Below are positions 45,237 to 58,274 of a stretch of 64,000 nucleotides of DNA, piece after piece. How positions within the stretch are numbered: the first letter of the stretch is position 1; the number at the start of each line of letters is the position of its first letter. A model generated the notes under the pieces. The model saw only the letters and a list, made by a program, of their open reading frames with translations, was not told the origin of the DNA and did no database searches. The translations under genes were made by a program, and so were the position numbers. Source of the stretch: an uncultured Candidatus Binatia bacterium (GTDB taxonomy: Bacteria; Desulfobacterota; Binatia; Bin18); NCBI GenBank assembly GCA_965214605.1, contig OZ243961.1:160001-224000 (forward strand). Direction: 5' to 3'.

Positions 45237-46480
45237 TCATTCGCGCAACCGCGACCGTGGTGGTCTCGTCATCGCACCATAATGCAAACCGCACTGCAGC
45301 CGGAGCTCGCGGTCCACGCTCTTCGGCGCGCGGGCCCGTGCCTGCGCCTTACTGCCCAAGGTCCCTCTCGACCCGTTGACCATGCACCGGTCCAGAGGGC
45401 TCGCGGTCCTTCGCCGCCTGCGCATCCCGATCGACGCTCTCGGCGATTGGGCGGTGTCTCCACGATCCGCCTCGCTGTCGCGCGCCAACGCCCCTTCTCT
45501 CTGGACCCCGGCTTCCGCATCCTTGGCGGGCACGCCCTGTACCCCCTCGCCAGTCCCCTCCGGCTACTAAGATACGCTCTCCAGTCACGGCTTTCAACTG
45601 CTCGTGCAGCCTCGCCGCATCGTCAGTTAGCAGCTCGGCCCGGTTCCGCGCCCGGCTGATCTCGACGTAGAAGCTCTTCTGCGTGGTGAGATGAGGGTGG
45701 TTCGCCTCCATCGCGGCGATCACGTTGGCGACGGTGCGCCCCTGGAAGGCCTGCACCGTCGAGGCCCAGGCGTGATTGAGATGGCGCAACTGCGGGTCGC
45801 CTTCGCTCAGGCTGAGCATGCGCGCCCATCGTTGAGCCGGAACGATACACGGCCGTTGTTCACCCCGGTTACCTCTACGGTGTGGCTGTTGACGAGCCCG
45901 AGGCCGGTGTCGTTGCAGGTCCAGCGGACGCGGTCTCCGGCACGGAGCTCGATCCCCTCCACGCAGTAGACCTCACTGCCGCCCTGCCGTCCGCCGATCT
46001 CCCCCGGCTTCCAGCGCACCATGCCTCCTTCGCTGCCTTCCAGCAGGACCTCGCGGGTCTCGTGATCGACCCCGGCCACCTGCCGTCCTTGCCCCGGACC
46101 ATGTTGGCGAGGACCGCGTGGGTGTGGAGCTGGGGGGCGAGGTTGCGGGAGGTATCGTGACGGAAGGTGGCGGCCACCGTGCTCTGGTTGGCGGCGCGGA
46201 CCATGCGGCCGGTCTCCGGTGTAGCCGCATGCGGGTTTCGGCCGCGTTCGTCTCAATCCAGGCGAGCGTGCGCGCGACGGCCCGGTCGTGGGCACCGACC
46301 ACTCGGCTGTCGCCGCCGACCAATGCGATAGGGAGACGGATTTGGGCGCCGAGAAGGTGAGGTCGCGGCCGGGCCGGTGGATGCGGTTGCCGTCCTTGGC
46401 GAGGAGTACGAGCCGGCGCGCCGCTGCCGTCAGGCGCCCTGCAATGGTTGTCGGCCTTGAACACCTCCGGCCCAGCGGGC
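45237..46480 (-). pseudogene. MOBF (TrwC/TraI) relaxase-helicase, frameshifted and internally deleted
   Basis: AHDRAVARTL; FRHDTSRNLAPQLHTHAVLANM (HUH motif) joined near 46080 to the helicase C-terminus (ELRAGDRVRWT, HAWASTVQAFQG, FYVEISRAR). Confidence 0.88.
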
Positions 46481-46599
46481 TGGATCCCGAGCTTCATCGA
46501 ACGCCTTGGTGGATCTCGCCGGCGCATCGGCGAGCCTCGCGTGGTGGCCTTCAGGTCGGGATCCTCGCTGGCGCTCTGGCATCGGCCGCTGCCATCGAC

Positions 46600-47255: not shown

Positions 47256-47556
47256 AGTGTTAGGTGCCGAGGAAGCCCAACAGAACTAAGGCTCTTTTCG
47301 GAGGAAAACACAGAGAAGTCCGAGCATGGCACCGAGTTGGCCTATCTCCAGAATAAGGGGTTGTCGGCTAGATCTTCTTTGCTCGGTCAGTGCTGCGCCA
47401 ACAGGTGGGCTCCATAAATAAACACGACTCCGGCCAGCGTTGCCAAAGGCAGGAGGCGGGAATGGCTAGCATCATGGGCGGCTGGCAGGAGACTACTCGC
47501 CCCGAGATACAGAAGCACGCCAGCAAACCATCCCAGCAGTAAGGCTAACTGCGGCG
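47256..47556 (+). repeat. 301-bp direct repeat, right copy
   Basis: Matches 41714-42014; contains the 3' end of the full-length ZIP gene. Confidence 0.95.
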
Positions 47557-48127
47557 TGGCGAGCGTCACATAGGCTTGGAGCCACACGCCGGAGAGAGGT
47601 GCGAGGGCGGTCAGCCCCAACATTGCGGTGGTCGCCCGGGGCGAGTGCCGGGTGCCCAACATCAGGCTCGCCACGCTGGCACCGTCGGCCAGTTTATGGA
47701 GAGTCACTCCTAATGCGATCGCCCAGCCGATATGGTCGTGAATGTGAAAGCCTTTCCCAATGGCAAATCCGTCAATTAGGCTGTGGACCATAATGCCGAG
47801 GGCTCCCAGCCCTCCGGCATGGGAGACATGGGCATGATGGGCTTCTCGCTCTTCGGGGGGGTCTCGGTCGTGGGTGGCATACTCAAGCACGTAAAAACAC
47901 AAAAATCCGCATACGCAGGCGAGCTGCAGGTGGTGGTACTCAAGGAGACTATCGGTCGAGTTCAAGAGCGCTAAGGCGTCGGGCAAGATCTCCACTAAGG
48001 CCCCGGTCATCAGGGCCCCGGCGCAGAAGGCAAACAGCACGCCTTGATAAGACCGAAAACGGAGGGCCAGCACTCCGCCGACTAGGGTGAGGACGCACGT
48101 AGCGCCTGCAATCCAGAAAGCAGTCAT
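47387..48127 (-). CDS. ZIP family metal transporter
   Basis: His-rich loop, HSLIDG (TM4), LHKLADG (TM5), LLPAAH. Confidence 0.9.
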   Translation of the reverse strand: MTAFWIAGATCVLTLVGGVLALRFRSYQGVLFAFCAGALMTGALVEILPDALALLNSTDSLLEYHHLQLACVCGFLCFYVLEYATHDRDPPEEREAHHAHVSHAGGLGALGIMVHSLIDGFAIGKGFHIHDHIGWAIALGVTLHKLADGASVASLMLGTRHSPRATTAMLGLTALAPLSGVWLQAYVTLATPQLALLLGWFAGVLLYLGASSLLPAAHDASHSRLLPLATLAGVVFIYGAHLLAQH

Positions 48128-48142
48128 ATGAGGAAGCAGACT

Positions 48143-48168
48143 ATACTACTGCGACAGAGTTGTAAGTA
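48143..48168. promoter_or_regulatory. putative Fur-family (Zur-like) operator upstream of ZIP
   Basis: ATACTACTGCGACAGAGTTGTAAGTA; 17/26 identical to the box at 54153-54178. Confidence 0.55.
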
Positions 48169-48184
48169 GGGTGCTCTGCCCGTG

Positions 48185-48838
48185 TCACGCTGCTGGCTCC
48201 TGCGTACCAAACAGCCCTTCCTTGCCCTCTTTGACTAGCCAGGGCAGTATGCTCAAAGCGGCGGCCGGGTCTGCCCACCACCAACCTAGGAGCGCATTGG
48301 CTCCCAGACCGAGCAGGAGTGTGAATGACAAATACGAACAGGCGAGGGTTTCTTTTGCCTCGGCCCGCAGAGCCTGACTCCCGACGACAGCCGCCGCCCG
48401 AAGTTTTCCAAGGGACACGAGCGGCATAATTGTCAGTGAGAGGCCAGCCAGGACAATACCAATGAGGCTTTCGTGTGGGGCTTCCCGCTGCCACAATATC
48501 CAGCCGGCCTGGCCTAGCACGTACACGGCCAGAGCAAAAAACGAGACGCCTACAAATTGGTGTAACCGACGGTCTGCGCGTGCTATGCGTTCTATGGCAA
48601 CGCCTTGCAGCTCAAGCGCGAGACGCCACAAGAGGACCCCGGCGGCGAGGAGTTCAATCAGGCTGTTGAGGCCAAACTCAATCAGCGCAATACTCGCCGC
48701 TTCGGTACCGGCCCACAGCGCAATCACCGCTTCGACGATGTTATACAGCATCGTCGCAATAACGAGGCCAAGGCCAATCCGTAGCCAGCGCTCGGACGGC
48801 GTGCGGGGGGGAATCCCGACCGCAGCTCCGGGTCCCAT
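48185..48838 (-). CDS. cation-efflux (CDF-like) membrane protein
   Basis: YNIVEAVIA, SIAL..FGLNSLIE, ALRAEAKETLACSYLS, GWWWADP. Confidence 0.85.
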   Translation of the reverse strand: MGPGAAVGIPPRTPSERWLRIGLGLVIATMLYNIVEAVIALWAGTEAASIALIEFGLNSLIELLAAGVLLWRLALELQGVAIERIARADRRLHQFVGVSFFALAVYVLGQAGWILWQREAPHESLIGIVLAGLSLTIMPLVSLGKLRAAAVVGSQALRAEAKETLACSYLSFTLLLGLGANALLGWWWADPAAALSILPWLVKEGKEGLFGTQEPAA

Positions 48839-48860
48839 TTTTCTCCACCTCCACCAACCA

Positions 48861-49721
48861 TTATCCACTGGTCCTATACCGCCGAACTATCCACCCGCCC
48901 ACCACTAGCAGGCAGAGACACGCTGCAGCCATCTGTCCAGGAGGATAGTCGTAGTAGTTGGCTAGGACAAAGGCTGACACGTCTGTTACCAGCGAGACGG
49001 CCGGGGCGATCACAAACATTTGCCGACTTTCCCGACAGACATTTTTGGCCGCCAGGGCCGGGAGCACCAGACTGGCAAAGCTGAATACTACGCCGGAGAC
49101 ATGGATGGAAAACCCGACCGCCAGCCCCAGCCAGACCGCAATCAGGCCGTTCCACACCTCTACCCGCAAGCCGACCGCACGTGCCATTGTCGGGTCGATA
49201 ACCAGCAGCAGCGCTTGATAGGAATATCTCCACAGCATTATAGCCGTGCCCAGCAGCATGGCGGTAAAAATCCACACGTCGGTCCGTCTGGCGCCGATGA
49301 TGGTGCTGGATGACAGTCGGTTGATCTCTTCCATACCGATGGGGCTGTGGGCCATCAGCAGGATGGCTAGGCTGACCGACACCAGAAAGACCCAGCCGGT
49401 AAGGGCTTCGTGGGTTTCTTGGCCGCCACCCCGGTTGCCGCTGGCCGTCAGCAGGGCGGCCAATACGGCAAACACGCCGCCCATTGCCGAGTGGAAGAGG
49501 TCGGATCGCCACCAGCTGTGGATATCCTGACTGATTACACCGCCCAGCCATATACCGATAGCAATGCCCAGCATGGAAGCCTGAGAGACCGCCGCGCCAA
49601 TAAAAATCTGATCTCGGGCCACGACGAGGACGCCGATAAGGGACAGCAGCAGGCCGATCAGCCAGCCAGACACATAGGCGTAGTGAAACAACGGCCAGGA
49701 GGCGAGAAAGTTGTCGATCAC
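48861..49721 (-). CDS. metal ABC transporter permease (ZnuB/MntB type)
   Basis: GVLVVARDQIF.GAAVSQ, DPTMARAVG, LVLPALAA, DYPPG. Confidence 0.88.
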   Translation of the reverse strand: MIDNFLASWPLFHYAYVSGWLIGLLLSLIGVLVVARDQIFIGAAVSQASMLGIAIGIWLGGVISQDIHSWWRSDLFHSAMGGVFAVLAALLTASGNRGGGQETHEALTGWVFLVSVSLAILLMAHSPIGMEEINRLSSSTIIGARRTDVWIFTAMLLGTAIMLWRYSYQALLLVIDPTMARAVGLRVEVWNGLIAVWLGLAVGFSIHVSGVVFSFASLVLPALAAKNVCRESRQMFVIAPAVSLVTDVSAFVLANYYDYPPGQMAAACLCLLVVGGWIVRRYRTSG

Positions 49722-50485
49722 CCCGAACTCCCGGCCGCGGACAGGGGGTTGGTGTCGGCTTGGACCTGAGGCAGCCGCCCTGCTGTTTGACCGTAGAGCT
49801 GTTCAAGCCTGTCAGCGGTAAGCATCTGAGCGCGTGTCCCAGCTGCCAGCGTCCCGCCGGTGATAAACCCGATGTGGGTGGCGTAGCGGGAGGCAATTGT
49901 CAGCTTGTGGGTAACAAACAGAACTGTGTTGCGCTCCTCGGTGTGAAGGGCGGACAGGGTTTGCAGGAAAGCATCCTCCGTAACCAAGTCGAGATGATTG
50001 GTCGGCTCGTCTAGGAGCAGGAGGGTCGGACGACGCACCAGAGCTCGGGCTACCAGGACCCGCTGGCGCTGGCCGCCGGACAGCGACCAGTAGTCCTTGT
50101 CAGCCAGGTGGCCCAGCCCCATTTTGTCCAAGGCCCAGATCAAGCGCCGGCGCCGCTGGGCCCGAGCCACGCGGATGCCCACCAGGCCCAGCAGCGCAAA
50201 CTCACCGACTGTCATGGGCAGGCTGGGGTTGATCTCGCAGTCCTGGGGGACAAAGCCAGTGCACTCCAGGTGGCCCAACCGAGGAGGAAACACCAGCCGT
50301 CCGGCCTGGGGCTGAAGTATGCCCAGCAGGCCGCGTAACAGGGTGGTTTTGCCAGTCCCATTCCGGCCCAGGAAGCACCAGAACTCGCCGGCGTGGACGG
50401 TCAGATTCACGTCGGCGAGAACGACCTTGTGTCCGTAGCCAAGGGACAAGGACTGGGTTTGCAGGACAGTCTCAGGACCTTCCAT
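49718..50485 (-). CDS. metal ABC transporter ATPase (ZnuC type)
   Basis: GRNGTGKTT, FVPQ, LSGGQRQR, LLLDEPT. Confidence 0.92.
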   Translation of the reverse strand: MEGPETVLQTQSLSLGYGHKVVLADVNLTVHAGEFWCFLGRNGTGKTTLLRGLLGILQPQAGRLVFPPRLGHLECTGFVPQDCEINPSLPMTVGEFALLGLVGIRVARAQRRRRLIWALDKMGLGHLADKDYWSLSGGQRQRVLVARALVRRPTLLLLDEPTNHLDLVTEDAFLQTLSALHTEERNTVLFVTHKLTIASRYATHIGFITGGTLAAGTRAQMLTADRLEQLYGQTAGRLPQVQADTNPLSAAGSSG

Positions 50486-50487
50486 GC

Positions 50488-50901
50488 CTAGGGAGCCGGT
50501 GTTTCGGACGCTGAATTGAGACAGGTCCGGCACAGGTGTCGGTTCAGCAGGTGGCTGGTAGCCAGAATGACAGCGCCGACACTCACTAGGGTTATCTCTA
50601 ATCTTCCTTCGGCAAACAGGCGACTAGCGGTAATTGCTGCCACTGCCGCGGCTAAGAGGAAGAAGGGTTGGCCGCCTCTATGGAGACGGAATCCCCAGCA
50701 CAGGTTGCTCAGGGCCAGGATGATGGCAGAGCTCAACAGGACAACTTCTGTCATTTCGTCTGCCAGAAAACTCAGGCTGAGGAATGGTAGGACTGCTACC
50801 AGAAGCGGAGTGAGCAGGCAATGGGTAGCACACACCAGAGATAACCCGGCTCCGAACTGGTCAAGCCATAGGCAAAAAGGGGCAACGCCCCGTTGGCTCA
50901 T
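50488..50901 (-). CDS. MerC-domain membrane protein
   Basis: LDQFG..LSLVCATHCLLTPLL, GFRLH, SHLLN..C. Confidence 0.8.
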   Translation of the reverse strand: MSQRGVAPFCLWLDQFGAGLSLVCATHCLLTPLLVAVLPFLSLSFLADEMTEVVLLSSAIILALSNLCWGFRLHRGGQPFFLLAAAVAAITASRLFAEGRLEITLVSVGAVILATSHLLNRHLCRTCLNSASETPAP

Positions 50902-51929
50902 GTCGCGCCCCCCAAGACCGAGGCGAGCTGTGTGACGTTATAGTCAAGCATGGCCAGATAGGTGTCGATGCCGGGCCGGGAAGCCACCTGGTCAGCCATG
51001 TTGACGATAGTTACGCTGGTATTGCTGGCCACAAACTCAGCGTAGCGGGAATCATAATAGGCCACGGCTAGAATAGCTTTGACCTGGTTCGTCTGTATCA
51101 GCTCAATGACAGTCTGCATGTGGCTGGTTGTTGGCGGAATCCCGGGTAGGGGTTCGAGGTAGGCAAGGATGTTGAGGCCGAACAGATGGGCAAAATAGGG
51201 CCAAGCGTTATGATCGCCAACGATATTTGCCCCTTCATACGGCTGCATCATGCCTAGCCAGCCGGCCAGCAGGGCTTCTTCGCCCTGACTATCAAGGAAC
51301 TGGACGAGCTGGCCGCGTTCGACCAGCAGGGCTAGCTTTTCAAAGTCGTACTTATGAAAGAGCGCTTCACCGACCAACGCGACGCCAAGCCGCTGGCGGA
51401 AGTCCTGGTAGCGCCGGGCAAAGTCCTCGCTGGCGCCTGGACGCAGGGTTGACAGCCGATCGCGGAGTAAGCCGGCAACGCGTAGGCCATTCACAGGATT
51501 CAGCAGATAGTGGGGATTGCCCAGGGGATGAACATCGCCTAGAGACCGATCGACTGTTGTGGTTGGAATCTCAAGCGGGGTAACGACAACCGAGGCGTCG
51601 ATATATCCTGGTCTGCCGGTCTGCAACCGGGCGTTCCGCGAACTGGACAGCAAGGGCGGGGCCCAGCCGGTTTCTAGGTCAAGGCCAATCTGAACGTAGG
51701 CGTCGCACTGGTTCAGGGCTTTAATAAAGCTCGGCTTGGGGACAACAAAATGGGGATCTTCTGTGCCTTTGGCAAACACGGTGACGGCGACCTGTTCGCC
51801 GCCGATCTCACGGACGAGGCTGCCGAGTTCGGGCACGGTCGCGCAGACCTGAAGTGGCTGGGCGTAGGCCAGAGCGGACACACTAAGACTCAGGATAAAA
51901 CTGCAAATGACAGGGCGGATGATGAACAC
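50898..51929 (-). CDS. metal ABC transporter substrate-binding protein (ZnuA/TroA family)
   Basis: EDPHFV, GLDLETGW, GDVHPLGNPHY, EPLPGIPPT; GTG start after GGAGG. Confidence 0.9.
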   Translation of the reverse strand: MFIIRPVICSFILSLSVSALAYAQPLQVCATVPELGSLVREIGGEQVAVTVFAKGTEDPHFVVPKPSFIKALNQCDAYVQIGLDLETGWAPPLLSSSRNARLQTGRPGYIDASVVVTPLEIPTTTVDRSLGDVHPLGNPHYLLNPVNGLRVAGLLRDRLSTLRPGASEDFARRYQDFRQRLGVALVGEALFHKYDFEKLALLVERGQLVQFLDSQGEEALLAGWLGMMQPYEGANIVGDHNAWPYFAHLFGLNILAYLEPLPGIPPTTSHMQTVIELIQTNQVKAILAVAYYDSRYAEFVASNTSVTIVNMADQVASRPGIDTYLAMLDYNVTQLASVLGGAT

Positions 51930-51939
51930 AGGAATCCTC

Positions 51940-53622
51940 CTAGAAGTTATGGGCCGGATGCGCTCCATATAGCCACTCGAAGCCCAGCCATACGCTGTGG
52001 GCGTTGGAGTCGAGATGCGAGGCATCATCAAAGTTGTACTGGAGGCGAAGGCGCGAGAACTCTGAGGGGCGCCACGAGAGAAGTGGGGAGAGGCGGTGGC
52101 GATCATTCCGAAAGGGGTCGTTCCGTCGGCCGCCAATGCTGGGACCGCTCCCGCCAGCGTAGTCATAGCGCAGGCCGGCCGCCCAACCGTAGCGAAAGCC
52201 GTACAACAGCTGGGTGTACAGACCCCAGTCTTTCAGGGTCCGACCATACAGAATTTCTTCGTCTTCTTCATGAGTGTAGCGGTCGGCGTGAAAATCGCGC
52301 CGCATGATCTCAGTCTGCCAGCTCAGGAAGGGCCAGCCCCGGAAGTTACCGTCGGGGTTCCATCGCCATTTCATATCCAGGCCGTAGATCCACGTATCGC
52401 CGTCGTCGCCGGTGGCGTTTGGCCCGTACAGCCCTGAGACGCCGAGCACTCCGGTGATGTTGTCGGTGAGATTGATTGAGTTGTTCCAGCGGGCCAGATA
52501 GACAAAGTCGCCAAACCCGTCAAAGACATTCCGGCCGGCTGGACGACAGCCGATCAGGGCGCACTCTAGGGCGTGGCCGTTCTCCGCAGTATGGCCGTGG
52601 TCTTCGTCGTGATCGCCCAGGTGGTCTTCGTCATGATCGTCTAGGTGGTCTTCGTCATGATCGTCTAGGTGGTCTTCGTCGTGATCGTCTAGGTGGTCCT
52701 CGTCATTACTGGCGACGTGATTCTCCTCGTGGCCGTGCCCTCCACCGGCGTGGCTGTGGCGTTCGCCTCGGAAGCTGACCATCTGGACCCCGTTGGCATT
52801 CTGCATGCCGAAGTGCAGCTCCGAGAACCACGGGGTCGGAGTGAGCCACGAGGTGCGGAAGCCGGTCTGGCGCATGCCGTCGCCGCCGAACAGACGCGAG
52901 TTTACGACCGGTTGGTCGATCCAGTCCCACTGGTGAGGGTGCTGGGTGTTGATCTGACCGAATTCGGTAAAAAAGTGACCAACTTCCAACTGAAGGTTAT
53001 AGGGCAGGGCGGTGCTTGTCAGAAAGGCTTCTTCCAGCTCAACAATGGTTTCGCCTTCGACCGGGTCAATGGCGCTGATCAGATACATCTCTCCCCGAAA
53101 ATAGGGGTCAACCGCGGCGCTCAGAGACAACTCGGCCTGCCCCAGAGTGAAGCCGCGTCTGTTCGGTTCGTGCGCCCCGCCCTGGATGGTAGACAGAGCT
53201 TCGCCTTTTTCACTGGAGCCGCCAGCGTAAAATAAGACATCGGCCGCAATATCGATAAGACGCAGCTGCGCTCCGCCGCCCAGGGGGCGCGACCACAGAC
53301 CCTCCGGCCGTGCCCTGAGCGATGGCTGACGGCCTTCGGCCAGGCTCTGCCGAATGGCTTTGTCGAGCGGAGAGTCGAGCTGCTCGGTAAAAGCACCCGC
53401 TTCGGTCTGTTGTTGGATGCGTTCCTCATTGGTCGCGCCCTCTCGCTGCATTTTGAGAATCGTGTTTTGTAGATGTTGAACGGTTTCTTGTAGGCTCTGA
53501 ACTTGCTCCTTGAGGGCTTCCATCTCAGCGGCCCGCACACTCGTGGCAGCGAGTACACTTCCCCCCAAGACGGCGGCTCCACAAACAAGCCGGCACAGTA
53601 TGTTTGTATATATCATCCTCAT
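51940..53622 (-). CDS. outer-membrane beta-barrel, putative zinc-uptake receptor/porin, with His/Asp repeat
   Basis: Signal peptide, coiled coil, ELSLSAAVDPYF, LEEAF, FGQINTQHPHQW, SEFSRLRLQY, C-terminal GAHPAHNF. Confidence 0.8.
   Translation of the reverse strand: MRMIYTNILCRLVCGAAVLGGSVLAATSVRAAEMEALKEQVQSLQETVQHLQNTILKMQREGATNEERIQQQTEAGAFTEQLDSPLDKAIRQSLAEGRQPSLRARPEGLWSRPLGGGAQLRLIDIAADVLFYAGGSSEKGEALSTIQGGAHEPNRRGFTLGQAELSLSAAVDPYFRGEMYLISAIDPVEGETIVELEEAFLTSTALPYNLQLEVGHFFTEFGQINTQHPHQWDWIDQPVVNSRLFGGDGMRQTGFRTSWLTPTPWFSELHFGMQNANGVQMVSFRGERHSHAGGGHGHEENHVASNDEDHLDDHDEDHLDDHDEDHLDDHDEDHLGDHDEDHGHTAENGHALECALIGCRPAGRNVFDGFGDFVYLARWNNSINLTDNITGVLGVSGLYGPNATGDDGDTWIYGLDMKWRWNPDGNFRGWPFLSWQTEIMRRDFHADRYTHEEDEEILYGRTLKDWGLYTQLLYGFRYGWAAGLRYDYAGGSGPSIGGRRNDPFRNDRHRLSPLLSWRPSEFSRLRLQYNFDDASHLDSNAHSVWLGFEWLYGAHPAHNF
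52597..52706 (-). repeat. 24-bp coding tandem repeat (~4.5 units; DHDEDHLD)
   Basis: Plus-strand unit GTGGTCTTCGTCRTGATCGTCTAG at 52597, 52621, 52645 and 52669, plus a partial copy. Confidence 0.95.
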
Positions 53623-53802: not shown

Positions 53803-54150
53803 TCAGGCACGGTAGGCCCGCAACCGGAGTCTGGAAACGGATATGAATGACCGAACAACAGGGGGAGCACGTGGGCTGCCAGAGCACAAATAGTCGGCCG
53901 CAGCGTGTTGCTCGGCCCTAATGGATAGACACAGGGTGGTGTACAGATAAACGACCGCAGTTGGGATATGGACGAGAAGGGCAGGGTTCTGTCCTCCTGT
54001 GACGCACAGCACACAATCTTGCTGGGCGAGACTGCCTGCGGGCTCGCTGTGAATATGAGAAACTCTGGCGGAGGACACGCACAACAGAACGAGCAGACTC
54101 AGCAGGGCTAGGCTTTTCTGCCAGGATACTAGGTGCTGTTTTTGCCACAT
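53803..54150 (-). CDS. DUF2946-like leader protein (TM/signal, HxH, CxxC, RAPP)
   Basis: SLALLSLLVLLCVSSA..SHIH..DCVLC..GSPRAPP; first ORF of the metal-uptake operon. Confidence 0.78.
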   Translation of the reverse strand: MWQKQHLVSWQKSLALLSLLVLLCVSSARVSHIHSEPAGSLAQQDCVLCVTGGQNPALLVHIPTAVVYLYTTLCLSIRAEQHAAADYLCSGSPRAPPVVRSFISVSRLRLRAYRA

Positions 54151-54152
54151 GG

Positions 54153-54191
54153 ATACTATTGCAATTCTATAGCAAGTACTTCCAGTGTCAA
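54153..54191 (-). promoter_or_regulatory. sigma70 promoter overlapped by a Fur-family dyad box
   Basis: TTGACA (54191-54186)-16 nt-TAGAAT (54169-54164); TTGCAA-N5-TAGCAA dyad over the -10. Confidence 0.65.
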
Positions 54192-54303
54192 GAGGTTTGA
54201 AAGCAAAAGACGCCCGAATACAGGGGGAGCAAGGATGAAGTGTCCTCTTGCGAGTGCTGGGCAAGGTGTGACAGAACAGGCCCAGAGAAGAAAGGAGTGT
54301 GTG

Positions 54304-55377
54304 ATGCCGGACTCACAGTTTGACAAAGCAAAAGCTGAAGCTTTTTCCAAAAAGATGCTCAGTATCCTCAACGACGCCAGTGTGGCCCAGATGATGGTCA
54401 TCGGCCATCAGGTCGGCCTCTTTGACACGCTGGCCAGCCTAGCCCCATCCACGAGTGAACAAATCGCGAAGGCAAGTAACCTAAACGAGCGCTATGTGCG
54501 CGAGTGGCTCGGCGCCATGGTGACCGGCCGGATCGTGGACTATGATCCGGCTGACAAAACCTACCGGCTCCCGCCTGAGCATGCCGCCGCTATCACACGG
54601 GCAGCGGGACCAAGGAATCTGGCGGCGATGATGCAAATGATCCCGATGGTGGCCAGAGTTCAGCAAGGCATTATTGATAGTTTTCGCGCCGGGGGTGGCG
54701 TACCATATTCGGCCTACGGGGACTTTCATAAGCTGATGGCCGAGATGAGCGGAGCCGTGCATGATGTGTCACTTGTTGACATCACTCTGCCCCTCATTTC
54801 CCAGATAGTCGACCGTTTACGCACCGGCATCGACGTTCTCGACGTCGGCTGTGGCAGTGGTCACGCGGTGAATCTGATGGCCAAGGCGTTTCCACACAGC
54901 CGCTTTACTGGTTACGATTTCTCAGAAGAAGGTATCGTTGCGGGCCAGGCGGAAGCGCAAGAGTGGGGCCTCACCAACGTCAAGTTTGCCGTCCAAGACG
55001 CGACCGAACTAGGCGATGTCAACCTGTACGACTTCATTACCGCTTTCGATTCCATTCATGACCAGGCTCATCCTCGGGCCGTGCTCAAGGGGATTGCCGA
55101 AGCGCTGAGGCCTGACGGTACGTTTCTGATGGTGGATGTGAACAGCTCAAGCCATTTAGAGGAAAATCTCGACCACGTCTTGGGACCAATGATGTACACT
55201 GTCTCGTGTATGCATTGAATGTCTGTCTCATTGGCCCTCCGTGGTGAGGGTCTCGGGGCAATGTGGGGCAAACACAAGGCGTTGGAGCTGTTGAGCGAGG
55301 CTGGGTTTAGTCAGGTCACGATAAAAAACGTCAAGCAGGATATGCTGAATAACTACTACGTCTGTACCATGGGCTAG
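54304..55377 (+). CDS. wHTH plus class I SAM methyltransferase (Rv2258c-like) with in-frame TGA at 55216-55218; candidate selenoprotein
   Basis: [23 protein letters not shown]; after SCMH-TGA the frame continues [25 protein letters not shown] to TAG 55377. Confidence 0.8.
55233..55252 (+). promoter_or_regulatory. SECIS-like hairpin
   Basis: GGCCCUC-[CGUGGU]-GAGGGUC 7-bp stem starting 14 nt after the UGA; G at loop position 2. Confidence 0.55.
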
Positions 55378-57476: not shown

Positions 57477-58274
57477 ACGACGGTCCTCCGTAGTGCTCGG
57501 ACCTAAAGACTGCAGTATGCACGAAGCGATCGGACAATATTTCTTATTGACACGTATTGATAAATGAATTGCCAACGTTTGAAACGTATCTTAGAGGATA
57601 TATGCACCGTTTCGTGATGAGTCCTTCAATATCTCATCTCCAGGTCCACAGGCAAGGGTATGGCGGCAGGGCACGGGAAAAGCTGGCAAGACAAAACAGC
57701 TGTGCTAAGAGAGTCTGTTCCAAGCCGATATCCAGTGGGTCCCGGTATATGCCTTCGCGTGGAAGCGAGCGGGAAGGCGATATTTTTATGAACCTACGGG
57801 GCCGATGCAGAGCCTGAGGCCGGCTGTGTTGGTCAACGACTGTGGGGCGATCACTATTGATGCTGAGCTGTGAGACGGGCAGGAATATCCCGTTCGGGCT
57901 TTTCCCGACAGGGGTGTCTCCTGTATCCATCGGCCCGATCTGTCGCTTGCTCTCCAAGAGGTATTGGCAGATCAGCCTCAGGTTATGTACCCAGATCAAA
58001 ATGTTGTCTCGCCTGCTGAGCCGTTGGTTCTCAAAACCTAGGGTCACCGTACCAAAGACAATCTGACGGACCGAAGAGTTTGTCCGTTTCACTAATCCAA
58101 CAAAGGCTGTTTTCCTACGACGGAGCAGAGACTAGAGGAAGTCCGCCTCTCGCCCTAATCACCAGCTCGTGTTCATACTAGGAACAGCTTCACGCCCGAG
58201 GACCCCGCAGGCCGAGTGTTGTTCTCTCCTATCGCACGTCAATTAAGATAGTCCTGATCTTAACACCGTTCTAA

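Follow-up and report, generated by a model that had tools for sequence, protein, structure and literature searches.

A probable selenocysteine form of an Rv2258c-like methyltransferase encoded across an in-frame UGA in an uncultured Binatia bacterium

Is the TGA at positions 55216-55218 of the DNA analyzed here a stop codon, or does it encode selenocysteine (Sec) in a methyltransferase that continues beyond it? The stretch in question, hereafter the window, comprises 64,000 nucleotides (nt) of an uncultured Candidatus Binatia bacterium (assembly GCA_965214605.1, contig OZ243961.1, positions 160,001 to 224,000 of the forward strand). Within it, an open reading frame (ORF) stops at this TGA (...YTVSCMH), and an original prediction, made from the letters of the window, had proposed that translation continues in the same frame. 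Re-reading the sequence gave the same picture, as the frame stays open for 52 sense codons after the TGA and reaches a terminal TAG at 55375-55377, yielding the 357-residue protein that had been claimed. We consider it very probable that the gene encodes one selenoprotein of this length, in which the UGA would be translated as Sec305. The further proposal that the protein is a Cys-to-Sec variant with the motif C-M-H-U is supported by the Sec machinery of the genome, by a TGA column shared with relatives, by Cys in distant homologues and by selection acting on the downstream codons.

The product of the gene is a methyltransferase of the Rv2258c subfamily, with both of its domains scoring over curated cut-offs and with the fold of a solved member. 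In Pfam comparisons of the read-through protein, the N-terminal part matched the Rv2258c-like winged helix-turn-helix (wHTH) family PF21320 HTH_65 (E = 1.1e-35, 122 bits against a cut-off of 24.1), and the C-terminal part matched the class I S-adenosylmethionine (SAM) methyltransferase family PF13847 (E = 7.8e-24, 84.5 bits against a cut-off of 27), with motif I (VLDVGCGSG) visible in the translation. The start Met (MADSQFD...) is common to the orthologues, the gene carries a single TGA, and the read-through tail ends in ...NNYYVCTMG. The nearest solved structure is Rv2258c (PDB 5F8C), found by phmmer with E = 8.5e-121 over residues 11-354. Its chain residues 319-367 align with the stretch that follows the TGA, and it reads TSLMHCMTVSLA where the methyltransferase gene reads VSCMH-TGA-MSVSLA, with Cys on the TGA column. 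The motif S-x-x-H-C-M-x-V-S-L-A, which the original prediction had given for this family with Cys on that column, was thus right.

A model of the read-through protein was built with AlphaFold2 on 81 family members (mean pLDDT 97, pTM 0.92). Foldseek superposed it on Rv2258c with a TM score of 0.95, a root-mean-square deviation of 1.0 A and 53% identity; the next neighbours were TnmJ and then the COMT-type proteins MfnG, SibL, SgvM, RedM, ASMT, DsyB, MmcR, MrsA and DnrK. In the model, C302, H304 and residue 305 all lie on helix 294-311. Because strands 337-343 and 346-355 are encoded after the TGA, a product of 304 residues would be expected to miss the last two strands of the predicted fold.

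The same TGA is found in relatives of the host. Among 41 related genomes, eight contain an orthologue that is 83-100% identical, and all eight carry exactly one TGA, on the same column; the more distant homologues in this set, including two paralogues of the host genome, all have TGC or TGT there (13 of 13, a count that leaves aside two further loci that do not align over the column). A species-level genome collection yielded 45 loci, of which 42 align over the column; 12 of these show TGA and 30 a Cys codon, and 11 of the TGA loci are labelled Binatia or Binatota and one Thermodesulfobacteriota. Across 401 genomes of the class, the TGA form occurs in 19, again as 83-100% identical orthologues with exactly one TGA each. 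These fall in three genera, here g1 (6 of 8 genomes, host included), g8 (12 of 28) and g11 (1 of 1), the last from a second family within the order. The 39 class matches that remain at E <= 1e-90 are free of stops, and their identity does not exceed 61% (G340, which is among them, is flagged as unpublished, and no result depends on it). The original prediction had named relatives with TGA at this position, and Cys in the others, as the pattern to look for, and both were found.

Deduplication left 16 distinct Sec-form sequences, each of which has the TGA at codon 305 and reaches its true stop at codon 358. A quick maximum-likelihood tree built from 60 sequences placed the full-length Sec forms, 15 in number, in one clade (SH-aLRT 100) nested among Cys forms, with two Cys forms of 65-68% identity as sisters. 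This pattern fits a single Cys-to-Sec change in the ancestor of these Binatia. No Sec form outside the clade was seen among the 80 metagenome homologues listed, all of which have a Cys codon on the column; this set was partly picked by a pattern containing HCM, one of the two search patterns used. As the same TGA is present in 19 separately assembled genomes, it is not a read error, and sequencing error was ruled out on this basis. An independent DNA run (X5) gave no cover over 55193-55278. Three contigs from RNA libraries of three studies bridge the TGA (X17 record 6, X19 record 8 and X20 record 11). These stem from relatives with differences at about 10-16% of letters, may contain DNA and are no evidence of expression. 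The comparison, which covered four runs, showed no difference at 55216-55218 among the best 40 of 200 rows listed.

One of the 16, in genome G002 (L020:1501-2277, the same as L047:3001-3777), matches residues 98/99-357 only and has in-frame stops upstream, with the TGA and the hairpin described below both kept. Truncation or rearrangement of the gene may account for this copy.

Codons on both sides of the TGA are under comparable constraint. Among the 15 full-length distinct Sec-form sequences, the ratio of nonsynonymous to synonymous divergence (dN/dS) after the TGA is 0.03-0.09, like that of the upstream part. For the pair L013 and L018, dN and dS are 0.072 and 1.04 downstream (dN/dS 0.07) and 0.085 and 1.07 upstream; for L018 and L019, they are 0.025 and 0.85 downstream and 0.068 and 0.66 upstream. 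The dN/dS check suggested by the original prediction therefore gave purifying selection, at about 0.07. Codons 306-317, which cover the hairpin, stand out with a dN of 0 and a dS of only 0.23-0.38, versus 0.6-1.1.

The host has the means to insert Sec. Its genome (4.37 Mb, 99.99% complete) contains all four of the genes that the original prediction had singled out, namely, selA (516 bits) with the adjoining tRNA-Sec gene, selC (anticodon tca; both at C1:3624480-3625727), selB (382 bits) and, directly beside selB, selD. The selD gene (L009, C1:1899798-1900724, minus strand) encodes a selenoprotein itself, with an in-frame TGA at the G-U-x-x-K site (AAG-U-AGKLGP). SelA was likewise present in five of five other Sec-form genomes checked and in five of five relatives without the Sec form. 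A crude scan of the genome for TGA codons with coding sequence on either side and a hairpin behind them gave 241 candidates and missed selD. Seventeen of these were compared with NCBIfam, where ten matched known selenoprotein families and seven matched none. The ten, each with an in-frame TGA, comprise seven UGSC-family selenoproteins over the curated cut-off, one AhpD-like peroxidase-related protein over its cut-off and two GrdB/PrdB-like proteins under the equivalog cut-offs. This uncultured Binatia lineage thus maintains a sizeable selenoproteome.

Several features of that set deserve mention in their own right. The UGSC paralogues (L084, L087, L090, L091, L092, L094 and L096) all exceed the NF041046 cut-off and carry a D/S-U-G-x-C motif and a selenocysteine insertion sequence (SECIS) hairpin; seven such genes are an unusually large expansion of a single selenoprotein family for one genome. 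The AhpD-like selenoprotein (TIGR01926, motif CSYU) and the two GrdB/PrdB-like genes are L089, L095 and L097, and the GrdB/PrdB-like pair, which has a U-P-x-C motif, may represent a divergent reductase B family. A further plus-strand TGA, in the window itself (39467, C1:199467), was flagged by the crude scan as lying in frame between coding-like stretches and having a hairpin of 6 bp; it may well be a false positive.

A SECIS-like hairpin follows the TGA of the methyltransferase gene, exactly where the original prediction had placed it: GGCCCTC (55233-55239), the loop CGTGGT (55240-55245) and GAGGGTC (55246-55252). It has seven pairs, one of them G.U; the stem begins 14 nt and the loop 21 nt after the UGA, and G occupies loop position 2. 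The published bacterial SECIS model allows a spacing of 16-37 nt. RNAalifold recovered the apical 7-bp stem and a lower stem, and the structure is conserved in 16 of 16 Sec-form sequences. The codons of the stem arms are identical in all 15 full-length Sec forms despite a dS of 0.5-1.1 elsewhere in the gene, and variation in the region is limited to the third base of the loop (U or G) and the G.U/G-C position. Of the covariation that had been put forward as a check, only one-sided changes were seen (in 4 of the 16 sequences, with G-C in place of G.U). Cys-form homologues have other codons at this site and no hairpin, and no Rfam family matched the region. Hairpins with at least 7 bp, at most one G.U pair, G in the first two loop bases and a loop start at 14-37 nt follow 28 of the 1138 TGA ends of long open frames in the genome (2.5%), and the hairpin alone is weak evidence. 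Its geometry is similar to that of the hairpins in the 11 other selenoprotein genes and candidates of the genome (the ten matched above and selD), which have 6-9 bp and G/U-containing loops of 3-5 nt starting 17-19 nt after the UGA. On this reading, SelB and tRNA-Sec would decode the UGA as Sec under the direction of the hairpin.

What might Sec contribute to such an enzyme? Where Sec occurs in known families, its place is usually a catalytic or redox site, and its presence at position 305 therefore marks this residue as functionally central in the Rv2258c-like methyltransferases, which are widespread. The structure paper on Rv2258c (J Struct Biol 2016) reportedly assigned no function to the protein, and we know of no substrate for the family. 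The protein would be a small-molecule SAM methyltransferase with a COMT-type fold, in which Sec305 stands in for a Cys that is highly conserved in the Rv2258c subfamily. In the model, Sec305 would lie beside His304 on the helix after strand 5 and cluster with His252-Asp253 after strand 4. Among 105 family representatives (50% clustering), H252 is kept in 89, D253 in 82, H304 in 75 and C305 in 78, and the four-residue combination HDHC occurs in 55; H252, D253 and C305 are invariant in all 35 closer homologues of alignment A3. H304 is present in 80 of 80 metagenome homologues listed, a set picked in part with the HCM-containing pattern. C302 behaves differently, being present in 15 of 15 full-length Sec forms versus only 18 of the 105 family representatives; its column has Thr in the two nearest Cys-form sisters and Cys in 43 of the 80 metagenome homologues listed. 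The CxxU pair thus characterizes the Sec clade rather than the family.

We would place the H-D...H-C/U cluster in the pocket of the acceptor substrate. A profile match to the iron-dependent C-methyltransferase MppJ (E about 4e-16) pairs profile positions 174-258 with chain residues 161-252 and has H252 inside it. According to the passages of PMC10502145 that describe the site, SgvM binds zinc via H244 and H296, two residues whose spacing of 52 is the same as that of H252 and H304. Because the second His is not alignable, we can only infer that H-D...H-U makes up a metal- or substrate-activating site. In one scheme, the Sec305/His cluster would bind a metal ion; alternatively, the selenolate would act on the substrate as a nucleophile or ligand; and Cys302, one helical turn away, could resolve oxidized selenium via a selenenylsulfide. 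By analogy with the two His of SgvM, a role of the selenium as metal ligand is a reasonable possibility. We would propose a direct nucleophile or a ligand of a soft substrate more tentatively, and a redox switch with C302 seems rather unlikely. It is doubtful whether Sec305 combines with His304, His252 and Asp253 into a type of catalytic centre undescribed in SAM methyltransferases, with a selenolate as metal ligand or as covalent nucleophile and leaving group; if it did, the whole Rv2258c family would use Cys or Sec for catalysis.

Three other explanations of the TGA have to be set against the selenoprotein. The gene could be split, with translation stopping at the UGA to release a 304-residue product and the 52-codon tail being made from its own ATG (TGAATG), so that two chains assemble. 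Reinitiation at the ATG at 55219-55221, directly after the TGA, is formally possible, and purifying selection on the tail would be equally expected for a separate chain. There is, however, no purine-rich ribosome-binding site ahead of this ATG, and since the Cys forms read H-C-M, the Met after the column is ancestral and not a new start. The break would also fall exactly at the conserved Cys and, as modelled, inside helix 294-311; the hairpin and the depressed synonymous rate would be left without a role; and other genes of this organism have their UGA decoded as Sec. We regard a split gene as quite unlikely. The selenium-free alternative, in which a near-cognate tRNA inserts an ordinary amino acid (Trp or Cys) at the UGA with stimulation by the hairpin, is very unlikely. 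Structured RNA after a stop can promote read-through, but the column is Cys in the distant homologues examined, making it a classic Cys/Sec pair, and the genome combines a full Sec machinery with 11 other TGA-containing selenoprotein genes or candidates that have similar hairpins. Moreover, the genome uses TGA as an ordinary stop more often than any other, with 1138 such ends among 2843 open frames of at least 250 codons. Least probable of all is a pseudogene inactivated by a TGC-to-TGA nonsense mutation, a reading that we consider extremely unlikely. Such a change takes one substitution, the G002 copy lacks the first 98 codons, and the gene is dispensable in many relatives; against this, 19 genomes from three genera retain the TGA although their proteins are 83-100% identical and dS reaches about 1, and all 16 distinct sequences have an undamaged frame downstream, with a dN/dS of about 0.07.

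A single Sec-containing chain remains the reading that we favor, and the following points weigh against it or against the more tentative active site outlined above, along with the adjacent ATG and the shortened G002 copy. RNAalifold found no double compensatory change in the hairpin across the 16 sequences, and in the host copy, the minimum free energy structure of the 60-nt segment uses a competing pairing (z = -1.72), with 10 of 200 shuffles folding equally. The loop is larger and further out (6 nt, start at 21) than in the 11 comparison hairpins of the genome. The gene is patchy, as this query found none in 2 of 8 g1 genomes and 16 of 28 g8 genomes, and when all ORFs around 38 homologous loci were clustered, no neighbour recurred beyond one closely related Mycobacterium-type group. 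At the proposed site, C305 is not universal (78 of 105 family representatives, with Ser in TnmJ), and H304 corresponds to the second metal His of SgvM and MppJ by equal spacing only, with the MppJ profile match stopping at position 258. A profile of the C-terminal part (A3) found neither MppJ nor SgvM, and structures of ArsM appeared at a non-significant E of about 0.7.

The genes around the methyltransferase were also compared, and Table 1 collects the coordinates. The original prediction had drawn attention to a divergently placed metal-uptake operon and had ventured a thiol or metalloid methyltransferase. In the host, the neighbours include the metal-uptake genes ZnuA/ABC/MerC/ZIP together with SCO1, an FMN dehydrogenase and Fur, a syntenic arrangement that is confined to genus g1. 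In g8 and g11, the neighbours are unrelated: an epoxide hydrolase, an SMP-30 lactonase, a saccharopine-dehydrogenase-like protein and an isochorismatase in the former, and an ABC ATPase, AMMECR1 and a hydrolase in the latter. The gene context is therefore silent on the substrate, and no result points to a thiol or a metalloid. Independently of this, the presence of a MerC homologue inside a ZnuABC-type operon is unusual. Three minus-strand ORFs near the methyltransferase, of 560, 153 and 152 residues (51940-53622, 53803-54264 and 57634-58092), have no Pfam match; the first two are conserved in the genus at 57-77% identity. A short ORF with a weak relaxase match is possibly a mobile-element remnant.

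Table 1. Coordinates of the putative selenoprotein gene, its elements and other features of the window (C1, genome coordinates)
Feature	Position	Strand	Details
Putative selenoprotein gene	54304..55377	+	357 codons + TAG; predicted Sec = codon 305
Shine-Dalgarno-like AGGAG	54293..54297	+	6 nt before ATG 54304, read from sequence
UGA probably read as Sec305	55216..55218	+	Same-column TGA in orthologues, Cys in distant homologues
Rv2258c-like winged-HTH (dimerisation) domain, residues 25-99	54376..54600	+	Pfam PF21320 HTH_65
Class I SAM-methyltransferase domain, residues 174-334, spanning the TGA	54823..55305	+	Pfam PF13847
His252-Asp253 after strand 4	55057..55062	+	COMT-type catalytic/metal-binding His position
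Cys302-Met303-His304	55207..55215	+	CxxU partner Cys and conserved His adjoining the predicted Sec
52 codons after the UGA	55219..55374	+	End of helix 294-311, helix 322-333, strands 337-343 and 346-355
SECIS-like element	55220..55274	+	Apical stem 55233-55239/55246-55252, loop CGUGGU
Predicted lower stems	55225-55229/55265-55269 and 55220-55222/55272-55274	+	RNAalifold consensus, 16 sequences
UGSC genes L084, L087	C1:622829-623350, C1:3022118-3022975
UGSC genes L090, L091, L092	C1:2286399-2287022, C1:2060863-2061492, C1:2698716-2699486
UGSC genes L094, L096	C1:3138722-3139336, C1:970637-971278
Metal-transport cluster	47387-52166	-	ZIP-like, cation-efflux-like, ABC-3 permease, ABC ATPase, MerC-like, ZnuA-like
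Short ORF	45973-46527	-	Weak TrwC relaxase fragment match, E = 3.2e-6, profile 90-126 only

The original prediction did not recognize the protein as a described selenoprotein family, and this holds as far as it is testable, as no NCBIfam model fits and the family is absent from the catalogue of a 2026 review, whose Table 1 gives 119 prokaryotic selenoprotein families (PMC13188914). The methyltransferase entries in that table are ArsM, methylated-DNA-protein-cysteine methyltransferase, MduS, methyltransferase/UXPK-star and two ArsM fusions (PMC13188914); an Rv2258c-like methyltransferase is not among the 119 families, and other surveys or supplements may list one. Similarly, the passages on deep-Sep and BSepDB mention no methyltransferase, and their supplementary tables could list the family. 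Literature searches found no work linking Rv2258c with selenocysteine and, for Binat* with selenocysteine, nothing relevant among the matches listed. Neither the wHTH half nor the Sec-containing tail is covered by an NCBIfam model at E <= 1. As far as checked, the gene would therefore represent a new selenoprotein family, in which an Rv2258c-like methyltransferase takes a Sec form that is restricted to a single Binatia clade. In a public collection of 5.8 billion proteins, each of the 40 closest clusters (78-100% identity) has a length of exactly 304 residues, and none is named a selenoprotein. If the UGA is indeed read as Sec, current annotation misses the family, with truncated entries ending at residue 304.

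Several models of known Sec-containing methyltransferases were tried on the protein and rejected, with scores far below their cut-offs for ArsM (NF008823, 36.6 versus 263 bits), the ArsM fusions (NF041536, 35.3 versus 575; NF041537, 28.8 versus 510) and UXPK-star (NF047649, 27 versus 460). The MduS model (NF045649) found nothing at the locus at E <= 0.01, and its best match elsewhere in the genome reached 30.5 bits.

These known systems nevertheless offer instructive comparisons. MduS (NF045649, 2X_seleno_MduS) is, like the Binatia protein, a selenoprotein with a SAM-methyltransferase domain and, as given in Table 1 of the review, a CxxU motif (PMC13188914); it has two Sec, and its model spans 338 positions and sets a cut-off of 380 bits, whereas the Binatia gene has one TGA. 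The Sec-containing ArsM proteins (NF008823, NF041536 with DUF2284 and NF041537 with AhpD) and NF047649 are class I SAM methyltransferases with Sec in place of a Cys that follows the core strands, and a soft-ligand role of selenium is plausible both there and in the Binatia protein. In contrast to the latter, with its wHTH domain and CxxU, the ArsM-type and UXPK-star proteins have no wHTH and carry the motif UxxG listed in the review (PMC13188914). The metal-dependent alpha-keto-acid C-methyltransferases SgvM, MppJ and MrsA, which are COMT-type, are Foldseek neighbours of the model (E about 1e-15 to 1e-16) with an identity of only about 16-17%, and the passages describing them place no Cys or Sec beside the second His. 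The closest known system is Rv2258c of M. tuberculosis (PDB 5F8C, 5F8E and 5F8F), which shares the two-domain architecture and the fold. It has Cys in place of the predicted Sec305 and Ser in place of Cys302, so that MHCMTVSLA in Rv2258c stands against MHUMSVSLA in the Binatia protein, and the mechanism of Rv2258c-like methyltransferases becomes testable via one residue in a structurally solved family.

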